A stretch of 64,000 bases of DNA from Polyangiaceae bacterium (GCA_016712345.1 JADJRH010000002.1:200466-264465), one strand, 5' to 3'. Shown: positions 1 through 64,000, counted from the stretch's first letter. The notes: a model not told the origin generated them from the sequence alone. A program made the numbers and translations.

Positions 1-2231
1 GTTGCTTTTCGAGCGAATGCCTGTTCAAAAAAACGCACGAGGTCGTCTCTGACGTTGGCATCAAACCGTTCGGCGGCGAGCACCAACTTGGCATCTGGGT
101 CAATGGCGCTTCCACCCGCAAATGTGGGGCGTGAACCGGCGATCATTTCGTGCAGGGTGACAGCGGCGCTCCAGCGATCGGCGGCAAAATCCCACCCATT
201 TCTACCCTCCGATCGAAGGTAAGGATCGCGGTAGACGGCAGTGCCCACCTGCACATTGGAAATGGGTAGACGCGAAAGCGAAAAGTCAAACAGGGTAAGG
301 TGGTCGGCCTGTTTGGTGGTTGAACCTACCCCCAGGTTGGCCGGTTTGATATCGCGATGAAGCACTTGGTGCTCTTCTAAATGTTCGATCGCTTGCAGCA
401 GGTCGTCGCCGTAGCGACTGGCTTCATCGAGCGAAACAGGCCCAAATCGAGCAATTTTTTGTTGGAGTGTCAACTCGCCGGCGAGGCTGAGCAGCAGACA
501 CTTTCTACCCTTCAGGGTAGGCTGACCGTGAAGCGCCACAATGCGCGCGTGCTTGTCGCGGTCGAGGTTTGAAAGGACAATTGCCTCGTCGGCGATGCGC
601 TCGTCATGGGTAGAGTCGAGCGCGATCTTGAGCGCAAACTCGCGCTCGTCTTTTAGCCTGCGCACGCGCAACACGCGCGCAGTCGCGCCGGTTCCAAGCA
701 GTTTGACCACCTGAAAGTCGCCGAGCCGCGCGTCTTTGGTCGCGGTGAGCGGATCGACCTCTTCAGGAGTGGACGCTTCATCAGGAGCGGTCGCCGCGTC
801 GAGCAAGATCTCCAACCACTCATCCACATCATCGGCTCGATTGACCGGTGCCACATCGGTGGCAAAGGTAAACACCTCGGCGATTTTGGGCGAAACGCCG
901 TCGTCTACCGTTCGGGGATCTAAGTAACGGGATCGTTCGAGCCGGCGATCAAGTTCTTCTGCCCGTTCAGCCGGCGCGCGGCCTGTGAACACAAAATAGG
1001 CGAGCGCTCCCAAGCTGAAAAGATCAGACTGAGTGCTGCGCGAAAGCGGGTTTTCACGCAGTTCGGGCGCTTGGTAAACCGCCCAATCTTCAAGTGCGAG
1101 AGCCGACCAGTGTTGGGTAAAGTCAACCCCTCCACCCGCTCCGAGTTGAAAATTGAAAAGGCGCGTGTCGATCTCGTTTGTATCGGGATGCCTGCGAACC
1201 AGCACCGATTGAGGCGAAACGGCGCCGTGAACAATGCTCTTTCGGTGGCAGTGAGAAAGCGCGCGCCCAACTTGCTCCACCATTGTCAACCGCTCCTCAA
1301 AGGGAAGCGTTGGGTTTTGGCGCATAAACGCGTCGAGCGGAACGCCCCCGGCAAAGTTGCCGAAAATGACAGTGGGACCGAGCGGCGCATCGCTCACATA
1401 ATCTGAAAGCTGGAGAACGTGCGGATGCTCGCGAACATCCCACAAAAGAGTGCTTTCACGTTCGGCCGCGCGACGAAGCTGCATCCGCCGATCCACACTC
1501 GCTTGTTGGGGCACGAGGTACACTCGCGCGCGGGTAGAAAAATTTTTATGACGATGGGTAGCTACGCGGTCTTGATATCCCGCTCCATCCACAAGCAGCT
1601 CCCCCAATTCATAACTGCCGGCCACGGCTCGACCCTTACGAGCGCGAATGCCCAGCGCTGAAAGGGCCTGCGCCACATCGTGCATGGTAGGTCGATCGAT
1701 CTTATCATTGCGATAGTTGTCAGGTGCACCCGGAAACTTATGAAACTGGACCGCCGCGGCGAGGTCTTTGCGAGTGACCACACGGATCATCCCATCGGCT
1801 TTCAGCCGAAGGTCGAGATCCGTGGCGCTCAAAAACACCAATGCCTCCACGTACGGGCATTTGGCCGGGTAGTTCATTTTCGACAAAAGGCGCGATTTAA
1901 GCACCTTTGCCTTGTAATTGCACAAGGACAGCGGCCCATCCATGTACACCGACCGGGCTTGACCCGGCGGTGTTCTATACCACTCGTGGTGATCACCTTC
2001 ATACCTGCCGGGGCCGCTTTTGATTTCGATCAAATACAGGGCTGAATAGCCCATGACCAACAGGTCAACTTCAAGCAGTCTACCCGTGGAAGGTTCAAGC
2101 AGCTCGGTGAGCGCCCACACATGAAAAGGATCGCTGTCGGGCAGAGCGGCGTAGGCAAATTCAAGCGCCTCGCGCTCGTGCGCATAAGGCGACTCTCCAA
2201 CAACGACTTTGCGAGCATTGGAAAGCGGCAT
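1..2231 (-). CDS. NERD-domain + tandem Ser/Thr protein-kinase-like protein (PglW-like architecture); 3' end runs off the left edge
   Basis: Own minus-strand translation from ATG at 2231: MPLSNARKVVVGESPYAHEREALEFAYAALPDSDPFHVWALTELLEPSTGRLLEVDLLVMGYSALYLIEIKSGPG, a NERD-type D..E.K core. A degenerate kinase-like domain follows (..HCHRKSIVHGAVSPQSVLV..), then a canonical one (VKLLGTGATARV, FALKI, HRDIKPANLG, LFDFSLS, GTAVYRDPYL). The frame stays open to position 1, so the ORF is missing from the track. Confidence 0.8.
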   Translation of the reverse strand, partial: MPLSNARKVVVGESPYAHEREALEFAYAALPDSDPFHVWALTELLEPSTGRLLEVDLLVMGYSALYLIEIKSGPGRYEGDHHEWYRTPPGQARSVYMDGPLSLCNYKAKVLKSRLLSKMNYPAKCPYVEALVFLSATDLDLRLKADGMIRVVTRKDLAAAVQFHKFPGAPDNYRNDKIDRPTMHDVAQALSALGIRARKGRAVAGSYELGELLVDGAGYQDRVATHRHKNFSTRARVYLVPQQASVDRRMQLRRAAERESTLLWDVREHPHVLQLSDYVSDAPLGPTVIFGNFAGGVPLDAFMRQNPTLPFEERLTMVEQVGRALSHCHRKSIVHGAVSPQSVLVRRHPDTNEIDTRLFNFQLGAGGGVDFTQHWSALALEDWAVYQAPELRENPLSRSTQSDLFSLGALAYFVFTGRAPAERAEELDRRLERSRYLDPRTVDDGVSPKIAEVFTFATDVAPVNRADDVDEWLEILLDAATAPDEASTPEEVDPLTATKDARLGDFQVVKLLGTGATARVLRVRRLKDEREFALKIALDSTHDERIADEAIVLSNLDRDKHARIVALHGQPTLKGRKCLLLSLAGELTLQQKIARFGPVSLDEASRYGDDLLQAIEHLEEHQVLHRDIKPANLGVGSTTKQADHLTLFDFSLSRLPISNVQVGTAVYRDPYLRSEGRNGWDFAADRWSAAVTLHEMIAGSRPTFAGGSAIDPDAKLVLAAERFDANVRDDLVRFFEQAFARKA

Positions 2232-2232
2232 G

Positions 2233-2925
2233 TCAGGTGGTGCCTCCCCTCGCAATCCGCGCATCTTCAGGTGCGGCGTCGTCGCTCACCAGGGCGCGTC
2301 CAATGGGAGTTTGACCTTCTACCGCGGTGCGCACGTCCGGGCTCTTGGTAAGATTTAACGCCAATGCCGACAAATAGGCGAGCTGACGATGGGAAGGTGG
2401 AGTGGCAATGACTGTGACTTGTTCGGCCCACGAAAGGCCCCCGTGAGAAGCAAACGCTTCAACAAGGGAAGCCACAGCCGAAGGGCCTGCAACCACCCAA
2501 CGGTCAATGGAAGACAGCGGACCCATGGCAACCGGGGTTAGCTTCACATCCCACGCGGCTGACCACGCTTGAAAAAGGGCCGAAATGCCGGCCGTAGCAG
2601 TAGATTCTACCGACGTTTGCCACAACTCTTCAGCATCTACAGGCAAAAGGCCCGGCCATTTGGCGCCGAACGCGTCGTCCTCGGCAACGGCTTTTTGAGC
2701 AAAGGTCGACCGCGCGCCAAACGCACCCGGCCATTCTGCATCGGCGTCGCGAAGCAAAAGGTCGAGCCGGTCGGCGGTGGTGAGGTCGCCCCGAAAGCCT
2801 GCCCAACGCGCATCTGCATCGGACCCAAAGCGACGACCGGTAGGTTTGCGCGCTTCGGCCCAATACAAGCCTGCGAGCGCAGTGCGGTAGAACGAGCGAA
2901 TTTCGTGGGTGGAAGGGGCTGCCAT
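2233..2925 (-). CDS. hypothetical protein, immediately upstream of and nearly abutting the NERD-kinase gene
   Basis: ORF 2233..3012. The internal ATG at 2925 (MAAPSTHEIRSFY..) is the likely start. Its TGA stop (2233-2235) lies 1 nt from the kinase ATG (2229-2231). No family recognised. Confidence 0.5.
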   Translation of the reverse strand: MAAPSTHEIRSFYRTALAGLYWAEARKPTGRRFGSDADARWAGFRGDLTTADRLDLLLRDADAEWPGAFGARSTFAQKAVAEDDAFGAKWPGLLPVDAEELWQTSVESTATAGISALFQAWSAAWDVKLTPVAMGPLSSIDRWVVAGPSAVASLVEAFASHGGLSWAEQVTVIATPPSHRQLAYLSALALNLTKSPDVRTAVEGQTPIGRALVSDDAAPEDARIARGGTT

Positions 2926-63475: not shown

Positions 63476-63557
63476 AAAGGCCGTTTTGCACGGGTGAACC
63501 TCGCACACAAAAAGGTGAAGGTTCTCTGATACTGTACTCAACGCTGACGTTGTTTCT

Positions 63558-64000
63558 ATGGCCTCACCGGCGCGCGTACTGATTGTCGATGACAGCCCGA
63601 CCATTCTGAAGGTCGTGAGCGCCATCCTCGCGCGGCATGGCTACGAACCTCAGATTGCGCGCGACGGTGCGGCCGGCATCGACATGATCAAACGAGGTCC
63701 GAAATACGACCTCGTATTGCTCGACTTCGTGATGCCGCGCATGAACGGCTACCAGTTCTGCCGCGAACTCCGATCCAATCCGGCCCACAAGAGCCTGCCC
63801 GTGGTGCTGATGAGCGCCAAAGGCGACAAGATCCGCGGCCAGTTCGTCCAGCAAACCGGCGCTGTCGACGCAATCACCAAACCGTTTGACGCGCGCGCCC
63901 TTGTCGCCGTGATCGAAGGCGCGCTCGCCAAAACCGCTGAAGGCAGAGCGAGGCCCGTCCCCGAAGGCGAAACAATGCCGGACGAGGACACCATCCAAGA
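63558..64000 (+). CDS. response regulator receiver domain protein (partial, runs off the right edge)
   Basis: Own translation: MASPARVLIVDDSPTILKVVSAILARHGYEPQIARDGAAGIDMIKRGPKYDLVLLDFVMPRMNGYQFC..LPVVLMSAKGD..AVDAITKPF. The frame is still open at 64000. Confidence 0.8.
   Translation, partial: MASPARVLIVDDSPTILKVVSAILARHGYEPQIARDGAAGIDMIKRGPKYDLVLLDFVMPRMNGYQFCRELRSNPAHKSLPVVLMSAKGDKIRGQFVQQTGAVDAITKPFDARALVAVIEGALAKTAEGRARPVPEGETMPDEDTIQ

Follow-up and report, generated by a model that had tools for sequence, protein, structure and literature searches.

A hyper-abundant heptamer, GGGTAGA, with a tract-limited distribution in a 64-kb window of a Polyangiaceae genome

We analyzed a stretch of 64,000 nucleotides (the window) from one contig of a metagenome-assembled genome (MAG) of a Polyangiaceae bacterium (GCA_016712345.1, JADJRH010000002.1:200466-264465). 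The heptamer GGGTAGA, which reads TCTACCC on the opposite strand, is a genuine, lineage-specific and hyper-abundant oligonucleotide in this DNA, with the core GGTAGR. The force behind it acts on DNA and not on proteins or translation, because the word is written into coding and non-coding sequence alike, with multi-step codon changes and amino acid replacements. Codon selection, repeats, chance and a distant donor are excluded as explanations. The reading that we favour, tentatively and with a probability of about 0.4, is a DNA-level drive whose products sit in homologous recombination tracts exchanged among close relatives. All counts given below refer to the window.

An exact recount on both strands gave 47 copies of the heptamer, 28 as GGGTAGA and 19 as TCTACCC (Table 1). 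An earlier note on this DNA had counted 46 copies, and its list was right except for three starts that were off by one (correctly 30293, 46399 and 52793) and one missed copy at 46360. The gap that it had reported between 7632 and 17397 contains no copy in the recount either, and none is found after 52793. The window has a GC content of 57.4% and a strong deficit of the dinucleotide TA (rho 0.46). Markov models of order 1, 2 and 3 predict 2.2, 2.9 and 9.6 heptamers, respectively, and GGGTAGA ranks first among all 7-mers of the window under the order-1 model. At orders 4-5 the expectation nears the observed count, because the heptamer itself supplies most of its own sub-words. As a codon-aware null model, synonymous codons were shuffled within each gene, a procedure that keeps every protein and the codon usage of each gene. 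In 500 such shuffles 3.8 ± 1.9 heptamers were obtained (maximum 12), compared to 43 copies observed in coding sequence, and shuffling the order of the codons gave an expectation of 3.5. The excess claimed from the raw count therefore survives codon-aware adjustment and Markov models of order 1-3. It amounts to 11- to 13-fold by codon shuffling (13-fold in the dense tracts described below) and to approximately 20-fold by the order-1 Markov model. Split by class, 35 heptamers were observed against 2.6 in the synonymous shuffle for the two large dense blocks, 8 against 1.0 for the region at 33-54 kb and 0 against 0.4 for the null blocks. Tripeptide contexts that can encode the heptamer synonymously do so in 35 of 100 cases in the dense blocks and in 8 of 139 elsewhere. 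Low-order Markov chains generally mis-model TA-containing words in TA-poor genomes such as this one, and Gly-Arg is plentiful in RHS repeats, but the chance that coincidence, codon usage, dipeptide content or repeated protein motifs account for the count is practically nil, as this is refuted by the shuffles, by the counts of synonymous opportunities and by the shuffles per tract class, and as the heptamer lies in five frames, in non-coding DNA and in unrelated genes.

The shape of the word was determined from its neighbours. The sequence GGGTAG is present in 83 copies, which are followed by A in 47 cases, by G in 24, by C in 8 and by T in 4, and preceded by T in 39. With GGTAGR as the working definition, 120 copies are found, and the optimum is approximately ATGGGTAGAA or GGGTAGGT, also written (A)TGGGTAGA(A). 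Flank profiles show only a T at position -1 and A/G and then A/T after the core, with random bases further than ±1-2 positions away; on these profiles we rejected a motif that is longer or bipartite. The relaxed words GGGTAGG, CGGTAGA and TGGTAGA occur 20, 11 and 12 times in dense, 4, 2 and 1 times in middle and 0 times each in null blocks, which bears out the earlier statement that relaxed words are distributed like the heptamer. The extended words ATGGGTAG and GGGTAGGT occur 20:0 and 16:0 times in dense versus poor tracts. No strand skew was found for the heptamer (28:19), GGGTAG (44:39) or GGTAGR (67:53, binomial p = 0.24), and the two orientations are interleaved within each tract. Within genes GGTAGR has a sense:antisense ratio of 45:66, the 2:3 that is expected if the stop-free frames are equally open, because the GGG-TAG-A frame would be a stop. 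The 43 coding heptamers are read as G-GGT-AGA (14), T-CTA-CCC (15), TCT-ACC-C (8), GG-GTA-GA (5) and TC-TAC-CC (1), and the remaining 4 of the 47 copies are intergenic. All five stop-free combinations of strand and frame are occupied, which bears out the spread over frames given in the earlier note. Its view that the word cannot stem from a preference for one codon pair and has a cause at the DNA level agrees with this spread of frames, with the intergenic copies, with the 45:66 ratio and with the shuffles of synonymous codons and of codon order.

The copies are dispersed and have unique, unrelated flanks, and neither a recurring copy-to-copy distance nor a mod-3 bias in their spacing was found. 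A dispersed repeat element, whether a repetitive extragenic palindrome, a miniature inverted-repeat transposable element, a CRISPR (clustered regularly interspaced short palindromic repeats) unit or a tandem repeat, is ruled out by the random flanks, the mostly coding location, the irregular spacing and a self-BLAST of the window, in which the sole internal repeat is one unrelated pair of 513 nt. An origin as the product of deamination or restriction (e.g., GGGCAGA to GGGTAGA) was rejected as well, as 0 of the 21 single-substitution neighbours of the heptamer are depleted.

The word is patchy, and the patchiness is significant. In 4-kb bins the heptamer has a dispersion index of 2.97 and GGTAGR one of 6.47 (simulated p <= 2e-4), compared to 1.08 (p = 0.38) for GTGTAC, a control word that is equally abundant and contains TA. 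A two-state Poisson hidden Markov model (HMM) on GGTAGR positions defined four dense tracts with approximately 4 GGTAGR per kb; the tract-like segments are 1-14 kb long and alternate with background (Table 1). The borders of the tracts ignore gene class, operons and ancestral gene order. The border at ~7.8 kb lies inside an array of genes (IgGFc-hyp-ELFV dehydrogenase-PAD-HEAT) that is syntenic in the closest MAG, ABC1.6, the border at ~30.8 kb lies at the VWA/MVP junction inside a MoxR-VWA-MVP operon that is conserved in a relative (locus L083), and further borders cut mutL and RCC1. Non-coding DNA contains 5 GGGTAG in 1.3 kb of the dense tracts versus 1 in 3.6 kb of the empty tracts, in which GTGTAC is present 12 times.

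The word is often spelled with the rarest codons. AGA is the rarest Arg codon with 58 occurrences in the window, 15 of which come after GGT, and 19 of the 70 CTA codons stand directly before CCC. GGT-AGA is the commonest Gly-Arg pair (14 of 54) and CTA-CCC the commonest Leu-Pro pair (11 of 34) of the dense blocks, and both are at 0 in the null blocks. AGA, CTA, GTA and TCT all occur in the empty tracts, never in the context of the word. The use of rare codons falls from dense over middle to null tracts; word density shows a moderate negative correlation with an index similar to the codon adaptation index (CAI; Spearman -0.51, p = 0.0015) and also declines with GC3, the GC content at third codon positions. 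Codon selection was rejected as the cause, as the IgGFc-binding gene has core-like codon usage and yet 7 copies, the STK-AAA16 gene has none in 4 kb with a weaker bias, and non-coding DNA follows the tract in which it lies.

Homologues of ClpA, the IgGFc-binding protein and MoxR assign the window to Polyangiaceae (Myxococcota). We compared the window with its nearest relatives, which share 77-90% protein identity and a conserved gene order and have a GC content of 68-72%. Enrichment of the heptamer was not found in any of more than 160 loci from relatives (~20 kb sampled per genome), including ABC1.6 and GCA_964268215, and the same loci did not reveal a dialect of the word. Candidate 'dialect' words in ABC1.6 and GCA_964268215 were resolved as a CRISPR-like array and a 22-nt tandem repeat, respectively. 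The array of ABC1.6 (GCA_041389765.1) lies at ~16000-18050 of locus L163 and consists of at least 16 copies of a unit of ~37 nt, GTTGCAGTCCCCTTGTCGGCGGGGATCTCGATGGAGG, every 71-74 nt. Codon alignments of MoxR and IgGFc showed that, where the residues are the same, relatives have CTG-CCC and GTG-GAG in place of the CTA-CCC and GTA-GAA of the window. At other sites the residues have changed, from Ala-Thr-Pro to Ser-Thr-Pro and from Phe-x-Arg to Leu-Gly-Arg. An amino acid change was found at 5 of the 12 word sites examined, and several sites need at least three substitutions. Because relatives carry GC-rich codons or other residues at the same sites, the word was gained in this lineage via many independent substitutions under a directional force. 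A sequencing or base-calling artefact was rejected: an independent assembly from another run (locus L081, Logan SRR11674035) is 99.7% identical over 27439-30840 (3.4 kb) and retains 6 of 6 copies, and the encoded residues fit those of homologues.

According to the reading that we favour, the word, which substitutions wrote into double-stranded DNA, would have been driven near saturation in a very closely related population or sister lineage. The dense segments would be homologous recombination (gene conversion) tracts that share their history with this word-rich gene pool, and the empty segments would never have been exposed to the drive. The least certain step is the drive itself, which may be a sequence-biased DNA transfer or recombination of the uptake-sequence type, in which word-bearing fragments are preferentially taken up or recombined and the word would accumulate in DNA that has passed through the filter. 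The best fit would be descent, through homologous recombination, from a word-rich relative that is very close. A close rather than a distant source is indicated because avoidance of CTCGAG, enrichment of GTGTAC(AC) and the masked tetranucleotide signature span all tracts. An uptake-type filter is favoured because the word is asymmetric and unskewed, lies in every frame, has a strong core and weak flanks, and reaches ~1-4 copies per kb. A process that acts in place on the whole chromosome is disfavoured because non-coding DNA is not filled everywhere and the distribution is not even like that of the palindrome GTGTACAC, which is described below. A drive by methylation-linked biased repair, of the kind proposed for the highly iterated palindrome HIP1 of cyanobacteria, is our second choice, and fits the evenly spread GTGTACAC better than GGGTAGA.

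Of the systems compared, uptake sequences and the 'dialect' markers of lineages come closest to how GGGTAGA would work, yet it departs from the uptake signal sequences (USS) of Pasteurellaceae and the DNA uptake sequences (DUS) of Neisseriaceae in distribution and sharing. To our knowledge no uptake specificity has been described for Myxococcota. GGGTAGA is similar to USS and DUS in being short and asymmetric, in occurring on both strands without replication skew at about 1 per kb or more, in excess over a codon-aware null model, in all frames and in non-coding DNA, in having a strong core and weak flanks, and in its origin by substitution and apparent association with conversion tracts. Uptake sequences are created by substitutions, with amino acid changes possible at poorly conserved positions (Pasteurellaceae; PMC2817400), and neisserial conversion fragments are enriched in DUS, many of which arise by recombination (PMC2397512). 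The word also recalls foreign uptake-sequence dialects (Haemophilus USS in Neisseria; DUS dialects, PMC3630211) as a possible fossil marker of a related gene pool, unlike which, with their known donors and demonstrated uptake, the GGGTAGA tracts have a postulated donor only.

Several points weigh against the recombination reading. The uptake sequences known so far concentrate in core genes and thin out in diversifying regions (PMC2397512); roughly the opposite is seen here, where the core blocks ClpA-ClpS-AspS-MazG and ELFV dehydrogenase-PAD-RseP are empty and the word is dense in the toxin loci and in the DNA that flanks them. Frames that use preferred codons are favoured by USS (PMC2817400), unlike GGGTAGA, which recruits the rarest codons and whose 6-7 informative positions are short for an uptake signal. 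None of the 160 and more related loci has the word or a dialect of it enriched, no word-rich sister genome was found in large homologue searches, and the matches of ClpA, IgGFc and MoxR leave a gap between 79-90% and 100% identity; the donor population is therefore hypothetical. Genes for competence, for a methyltransferase or for recombination specificity are absent from the window. The contrast in GC3 between dense and poor parts of the same gene (for mutL 0.573 versus 0.653) is inconsistent across genes, which led us to reject it as a test of ancestry, and a difference in ancestry of the tracts is marked by nothing but the words. The favoured model, like every other explanation considered, leaves unexplained a single-frame bias at 33-54 kb, where 7 of the 8 coding heptamers are T-CTA-CCC on the coding strand (Leu-Pro; Table 1), CTA-CCC makes up 8 of 44 Leu-Pro pairs, GGT-AGA only 0-1 of 37 Gly-Arg pairs, and TCT-ACC and GTA-GA are unused. 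Finally, the basis is 64 kb of one MAG contig, of which either tract class may be native.

It is doubtful that GGTAGR, with its optimum ATGGGTAGAA, serves as a 'barcode' by which an uncultured lineage of Polyangiaceae with low GC would recognise its own DNA in transfer. If it did, the tract pattern would directly paint the stretches that sister populations have exchanged by recombination, the flanks of polymorphic-toxin loci among them, and together with the independent HIP-like GTGTACAC two word-driving processes would be present in one chromosome. We know of no uptake-sequence-like system outside Pasteurellaceae and Neisseriaceae, and a barcode in this lineage would be the first.

A drive that acts in place throughout the genome, with purifying selection that clears the word locally from genes that are constrained or well expressed, is unlikely. 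Methyltransferase-linked mismatch repair, as proposed for HIP1, or another context-biased repair would here convert near-cognates to GGTAGR, which is consistent with the drop of word density with the CAI-like index and GC3 and with the decrease of rare codon use from dense to null tracts. HIP1 (GCGATCGC) likewise is built from non-preferred codons and anticorrelated with expression, its density is periodic at 10-90 kb and its sites are conserved by selection (PMC5861425). Methyltransferase-linked repair is a candidate mechanism for HIP1 beside selection, and Elhai's model ties hyper-abundant words to methyltransferases (PMC4390886). GGGTAGA resembles HIP1 and the alternate cyanobacterial palindromes in being hyper-abundant, dispersed and lineage-specific, in its location in genes, in all frames and partly in non-preferred codons, in its anticorrelation with expression or codon bias and in its unevenness over distances of tens of kilobases. 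Measured against the 15- to 300-fold range of HIP1, its ~13-fold excess in dense tracts comes out at the lower end. HIP words, however, are octameric palindromes linked to orphan type II methyltransferases, whereas GGGTAGA is asymmetric; the true HIP-like element of the window is GTGTACAC, and such a process may thus exist in this genome. A drive in place does not explain why the non-coding DNA of the empty tracts is nearly free of GGGTAG, why AGA, CTA, GTA and TCT are used there but never as the word, why borders split single genes and an operon, and why IgGFc, with core-like codons, is dense and the more weakly biased STK-AAA16 empty. That no single-substitution neighbour is depleted and that the word is not palindromic speak against it as well.

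It is comparably unlikely that the word is bound by a protein, for instance a silencer or an organiser of the nucleoid or of domains, and that selection in place keeps many such sites clustered in domains of 1-15 kb. The patches are domain-scale, HIP1 with its periodic density and selectively conserved sites (PMC5861425) is the closest precedent, and the toxin and defence-type loci in the dense tracts might be silenced. For sites of low specificity, however, 35% synonymous saturation, amino acid replacements and rare codons would be a high price, it is hard to see a regulatory logic in the 1-kb patches that cover the 3' ends of mutL and miaA, and no candidate binding protein is known. Chi and KOPS (FtsK-orienting polar sequences; GGGNAGGG) are also short, asymmetric words that are over-represented and recognised on double-stranded DNA, and GGGTAGG is similar to positions 1-7 of the E. 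coli KOPS consensus. Unlike the unskewed GGGTAGA, Chi and KOPS show a strong orientation along the direction of replication and are either genome-wide or core-enriched.

Less probable still is a technical mosaic, in which the assembly would have switched between word-rich and word-free populations that are closely related and co-occur. The source is a MAG, and the tracts differ almost solely in words, as if two near-identical genomes were interleaved. The independent assembly, however, reproduces 3.4 kb of a dense tract with all its copies, the synonymous recoding implies alleles too divergent for an assembler to collapse, and a real word-rich genome would still be required, so that the mosaic would change and not the phenomenon.

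We consider it very improbable that the word is abundant because a non-palindromic methyltransferase of the BREX, type IIG or type III kind targets it. An asymmetric word of 6-7 bases is the usual format of such targets, and the lineage avoids other words in the manner of restriction (CTCGAG, CAGCTG and GAATTC), so that restriction-modification pressure is real. Targets of restriction-modification are normally avoided or neutral and not enriched 13-fold, however, and this explanation predicts no tract-limited enrichment. No methyltransferase domain was detected by Pfam in the window proteins scanned, and GGTAGA did not turn up as a methylation motif in a search of the literature.

An equally slim chance is left to classical genomic islands with the compositional signature of a common unrelated donor, a reading that is largely refuted here. 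The earlier note had assigned the dense blocks to accessory genes and had considered a common donor of the islands. The first assignment is only partly right: the NERD-kinase, AHH/Imm11, CapA, TcB/RHS, MoxR and VWA genes are indeed dense, but the IgGFc-binding and MoxR-VWA genes are dense although they are orthologous in the closest relatives. MVP, which had been counted among the dense genes, is at background although it belongs to the same operon as MoxR-VWA, and mutL, which had been counted as backbone at or below expectation, shares with miaA a 1-kb dense patch that spans the 3' ends of both genes. Orthologues of IgGFc, MoxR, VWA and MVP are present in relatives, and variation between genomes is confined to the AHH/Imm11/NERD-kinase segment. 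The IgGFc-binding gene, with seven GGGTAG in the window, is conserved across Polyangiaceae; its orthologues, which are 77% identical, come from the relatives whose ClpA is also the closest, and ABC1.6 keeps the order from IgGFc to HEAT. The MoxR-VWA orthologues are 73-90% identical in high-GC contigs and in conserved order, and both sets of orthologues are free of the word. The presence of polymorphic-toxin modules (AHH/Imm11 and RHS-Tox-REase-9/DUF4304) and the NERD-kinase in dense tracts, the slightly lower GC, higher TA and weaker codon bias of these tracts and the difference from ABC1.6 to the left of IgGFc are compatible with islands. A common donor in the distant sense is nevertheless contradicted by orthology and synteny and by the CTCGAG avoidance and tetranucleotide signature that the dense tracts share with the rest of the window; masked tetranucleotide signatures did not clearly separate the tract classes. 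The patches inside mutL and miaA do not fit islands either. Scans of the window for tRNA genes and Rfam families were empty, among the window proteins scanned Pfam detected neither an integrase nor a transposase domain, and a plasmid, phage or viral origin of the dense tracts was rejected because no plasmid, phage or viral contig matched them.

Hyper-abundant words such as USS/DUS, HIP1, Chi and KOPS give a rare view of biased uptake, biased repair and chromosome organisation and are well known from few clades. The case described here, from Myxococcota, shows three oddities: the word is asymmetric yet unskewed, a third of the synonymous opportunities is recoded with the rarest codons, and the tracts ignore genes. 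A patchy asymmetric word and an evenly spread palindrome in one window form a natural internal control that separates two kinds of process. If the tracts are recombination imports, the word would be a ready marker for mapping gene flow in an uncultured lineage, and housekeeping genes such as mutL would be mosaics. If the word is maintained in place, it would be a second independent system, after HIP1, on domain-scale clusters of a short word. In the literature no report was found of GGGTAGA, TCTACCC, GGTAGA or GTGTACAC as a hyper-abundant or methylated motif; the novelty lies in a hyper-abundant oligonucleotide in a phylum for which no report was found, and in its unusual tract-limited distribution.

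Table 1. Tracts, heptamer copies and sites of two other words in the window. Tracts are from the HMM; heptamers were located by exact match, with + for GGGTAGA and - for TCTACCC on the strand shown.
Feature	Position	Strand	GGTAGR density and copies	Content or remarks
Dense tract 1	1-7800		4.1/kb, 32 copies, 13 heptamers	NERD-Ser/Thr kinase, hyp259, Imm11, AHH toxin, IgGFc-binding gene (HMM + Pfam)
Empty tract	7801-17200		0.21/kb, 0 heptamers	ELFV dehydrogenase, PAD, HEAT, hyp333, RseP, hyp217, CapA 3' end; word also missing from non-coding DNA, GTGTAC at normal density
Dense tract 2	17201-30800		4.3/kb, 58 copies, 23 heptamers	CapA, hyp320, TcB/SpvB-like, RHS-Tox-REase-9, DUF4304, hyp157, hyp372, MoxR, VWA (DUF2201)
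Background tract	30801-41200		0.67/kb	MVP-like, HisK, GAF, STK-AAA16 (0 GGGTAG in 4 kb), hyp336 5' part
Short dense patch	41201-43000		3.3/kb	Convergent 3' ends of hyp336 and RCC1-repeat gene
Background tract	43001-50400		0.68/kb	Rest of RCC1, hyp311, hyp670, sigma-70, mutL 5' two-thirds
Short dense patch	50401-51400		6/kb	3' ends of housekeeping genes mutL and miaA
Empty/background tract	51401-64000		0.32/kb	miaA 5', hyp681, hyp239, GH-like gene, MazG, ClpA, ClpS, AspS; syntenic with relative L001
GGGTAGA copy	201-207	-		
GGGTAGA copy	264-270	+		
GGGTAGA copy	504-510	-		
GGGTAGA copy	608-614	+		
GGGTAGA copy	1532-1538	+		
GGGTAGA copy	2079-2085	-		
GGGTAGA copy	5576-5582	+		Intergenic
GGGTAGA copy	5717-5723	-		Intergenic
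GGGTAGA copy	5924-5930	+		
GGGTAGA copy	6457-6463	-		
GGGTAGA copy	6795-6801	+		
GGGTAGA copy	6957-6963	+		
GGGTAGA copy	7625-7631	+		
GGGTAGA copy	17398-17404	-		
GGGTAGA copy	17433-17439	-		
GGGTAGA copy	17745-17751	-		
GGGTAGA copy	17873-17879	+		
GGGTAGA copy	18534-18540	+		
GGGTAGA copy	19488-19494	+		
GGGTAGA copy	19864-19870	-		
GGGTAGA copy	20407-20413	-		
GGGTAGA copy	21195-21201	-		
GGGTAGA copy	21890-21896	+		
GGGTAGA copy	22698-22704	-		
GGGTAGA copy	23077-23083	+		
GGGTAGA copy	23284-23290	+		
GGGTAGA copy	23410-23416	+		
GGGTAGA copy	23685-23691	+		
GGGTAGA copy	24367-24373	-		
GGGTAGA copy	26290-26296	+		Intergenic
GGGTAGA copy	28599-28605	-		CTA CCC; relatives CTG/CTT/CTC CCC
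GGGTAGA copy	28637-28643	+		CGG GTA GAA; relatives GTG/GTC GAG/GAA
GGGTAGA copy	28822-28828	-		TCT ACC CCT, Ser-Thr-Pro; relatives GCG ACG CCC, Ala-Thr-Pro
GGGTAGA copy	29172-29178	+		CTG GGT AGA, Leu-Gly-Arg; relatives Phe/Leu-x-Arg with CGC
GGGTAGA copy	30293-30299	+		
GGGTAGA copy	30509-30515	+		
GGGTAGA copy	31813-31819	-		
GGGTAGA copy	32560-32566	+		
GGGTAGA copy	35499-35505	+		Sense-strand T-CTA-CCC
GGGTAGA copy	36822-36828	+		Intergenic
GGGTAGA copy	41501-41507	-		Sense-strand T-CTA-CCC
GGGTAGA copy	42813-42819	+		Sense-strand T-CTA-CCC
GGGTAGA copy	46360-46366	-		Absent from earlier list
GGGTAGA copy	46399-46405	+		Sense-strand T-CTA-CCC
GGGTAGA copy	50531-50537	-		mutL, sense-strand T-CTA-CCC
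GGGTAGA copy	51262-51268	+		miaA, sense-strand T-CTA-CCC
GGGTAGA copy	52793-52799	+		Sense-strand T-CTA-CCC
GTGTACAC site	3133			
GTGTACAC site	9360			
GTGTACAC site	12990			
GTGTACAC site	16746			
GTGTACAC site	21653			
GTGTACAC site	23327			
GTGTACAC site	28751			
GTGTACAC site	37692			
GTGTACAC site	38529			
GTGTACAC site	41240			
GTGTACAC site	46750			
GTGTACAC site	48639			
GTGTACAC site	48895			
GTGTACAC site	51983			
GTGTACAC site	55019			
GTGTACAC site	56875			
GTGTACAC site	60415			
TGTCAGGT/ACCTGACA copy	1718			
TGTCAGGT/ACCTGACA copy	2231			
TGTCAGGT/ACCTGACA copy	5844			
TGTCAGGT/ACCTGACA copy	6278			
TGTCAGGT/ACCTGACA copy	6504			
TGTCAGGT/ACCTGACA copy	7723			
TGTCAGGT/ACCTGACA copy	22398			
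TGTCAGGT/ACCTGACA copy	25428			
TGTCAGGT/ACCTGACA copy	28113			
TGTCAGGT/ACCTGACA copy	31302			
TGTCAGGT/ACCTGACA copy	42536			
TGTCAGGT/ACCTGACA copy	55025			
TGTCAGGT/ACCTGACA copy	55229			

Two further words are over-represented in the window. The 8-bp palindrome GTGTACAC is present at 17 evenly spread sites, compared to ~1 expected, and its half-word GTGTAC in 103 copies, a 2.7- to 4.5-fold excess over synonymous shuffles in every tract class. Only two of the related loci that were examined contained the full palindrome, which looks like a HIP1-type highly iterated palindrome outside cyanobacteria. The unrelated word TGTCAGGT/ACCTGACA has 13 copies against ~1 expected, on both strands and with unique flanks, of which 10 lie in dense and 3 in poor tracts.

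Other words are avoided. Observed versus expected counts on both strands are 2 versus 41 for CTCGAG, 6 versus 26 for CAGCTG, 8 versus 25 for GAATTC and 16 versus 83 for CTAG, and this avoidance of 4-6-bp palindromes is probably a set of restriction-modification footprints. CTCGAG has a single site in the window, at 12831, where ~20 would be expected; it is avoided in ABC1.6 too, but not in GCA_964268215 (20 sites in 22 kb). The ApaLI palindrome GTGCAC has 15 sites, 11 in the 24 kb of dense blocks versus 4 in the other 40 kb, a difference that is not significant after correction for multiple testing. GTGTAC, its one-step transition product, is richer outside the dense blocks. The contrast between these two words suggests different restriction or deamination histories, with the reservation that the GTGCAC excess fails multiple-test correction. 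The GC content of the lineage of the window is more than 10 points below that of its relatives (57% versus 68-72%; loci L001, L082-L084 and L162-L164), a large recent drop within Polyangiaceae.

The 513-nt repeat has an identity of 89% and is located at 4924-5436, in a gene on the minus strand, and at 24445-24957, in a gene on the plus strand. It links the large RHS gene, in its region just upstream of the Tox-REase-9 tip, with the N-terminal part of the gene for the AHH toxin (4068-5552), after which comes Imm11. Because the N-terminal part of AHH matches the RHS region before this tip, the AHH/Imm11 pair looks like an orphan rhs toxin-tip/immunity cassette. The operon at 28240-33244, which is conserved in L083, encodes an AAA ATPase of the MoxR type, a metallopeptidase-like VWA/DUF2201 protein and a third protein that has a major vault protein (MVP) shoulder domain. 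In many other metagenomic contigs (loci L096-L123) a gene with an IgGFc-binding domain is located directly upstream of MoxR-VWA. The TcB/SpvB-like open reading frame (19174-22014) and the RHS open reading frame (21896-25774) overlap by 119 nt (21896-22014) when counted from the first possible start codon, and the true start of RHS is probably further downstream.

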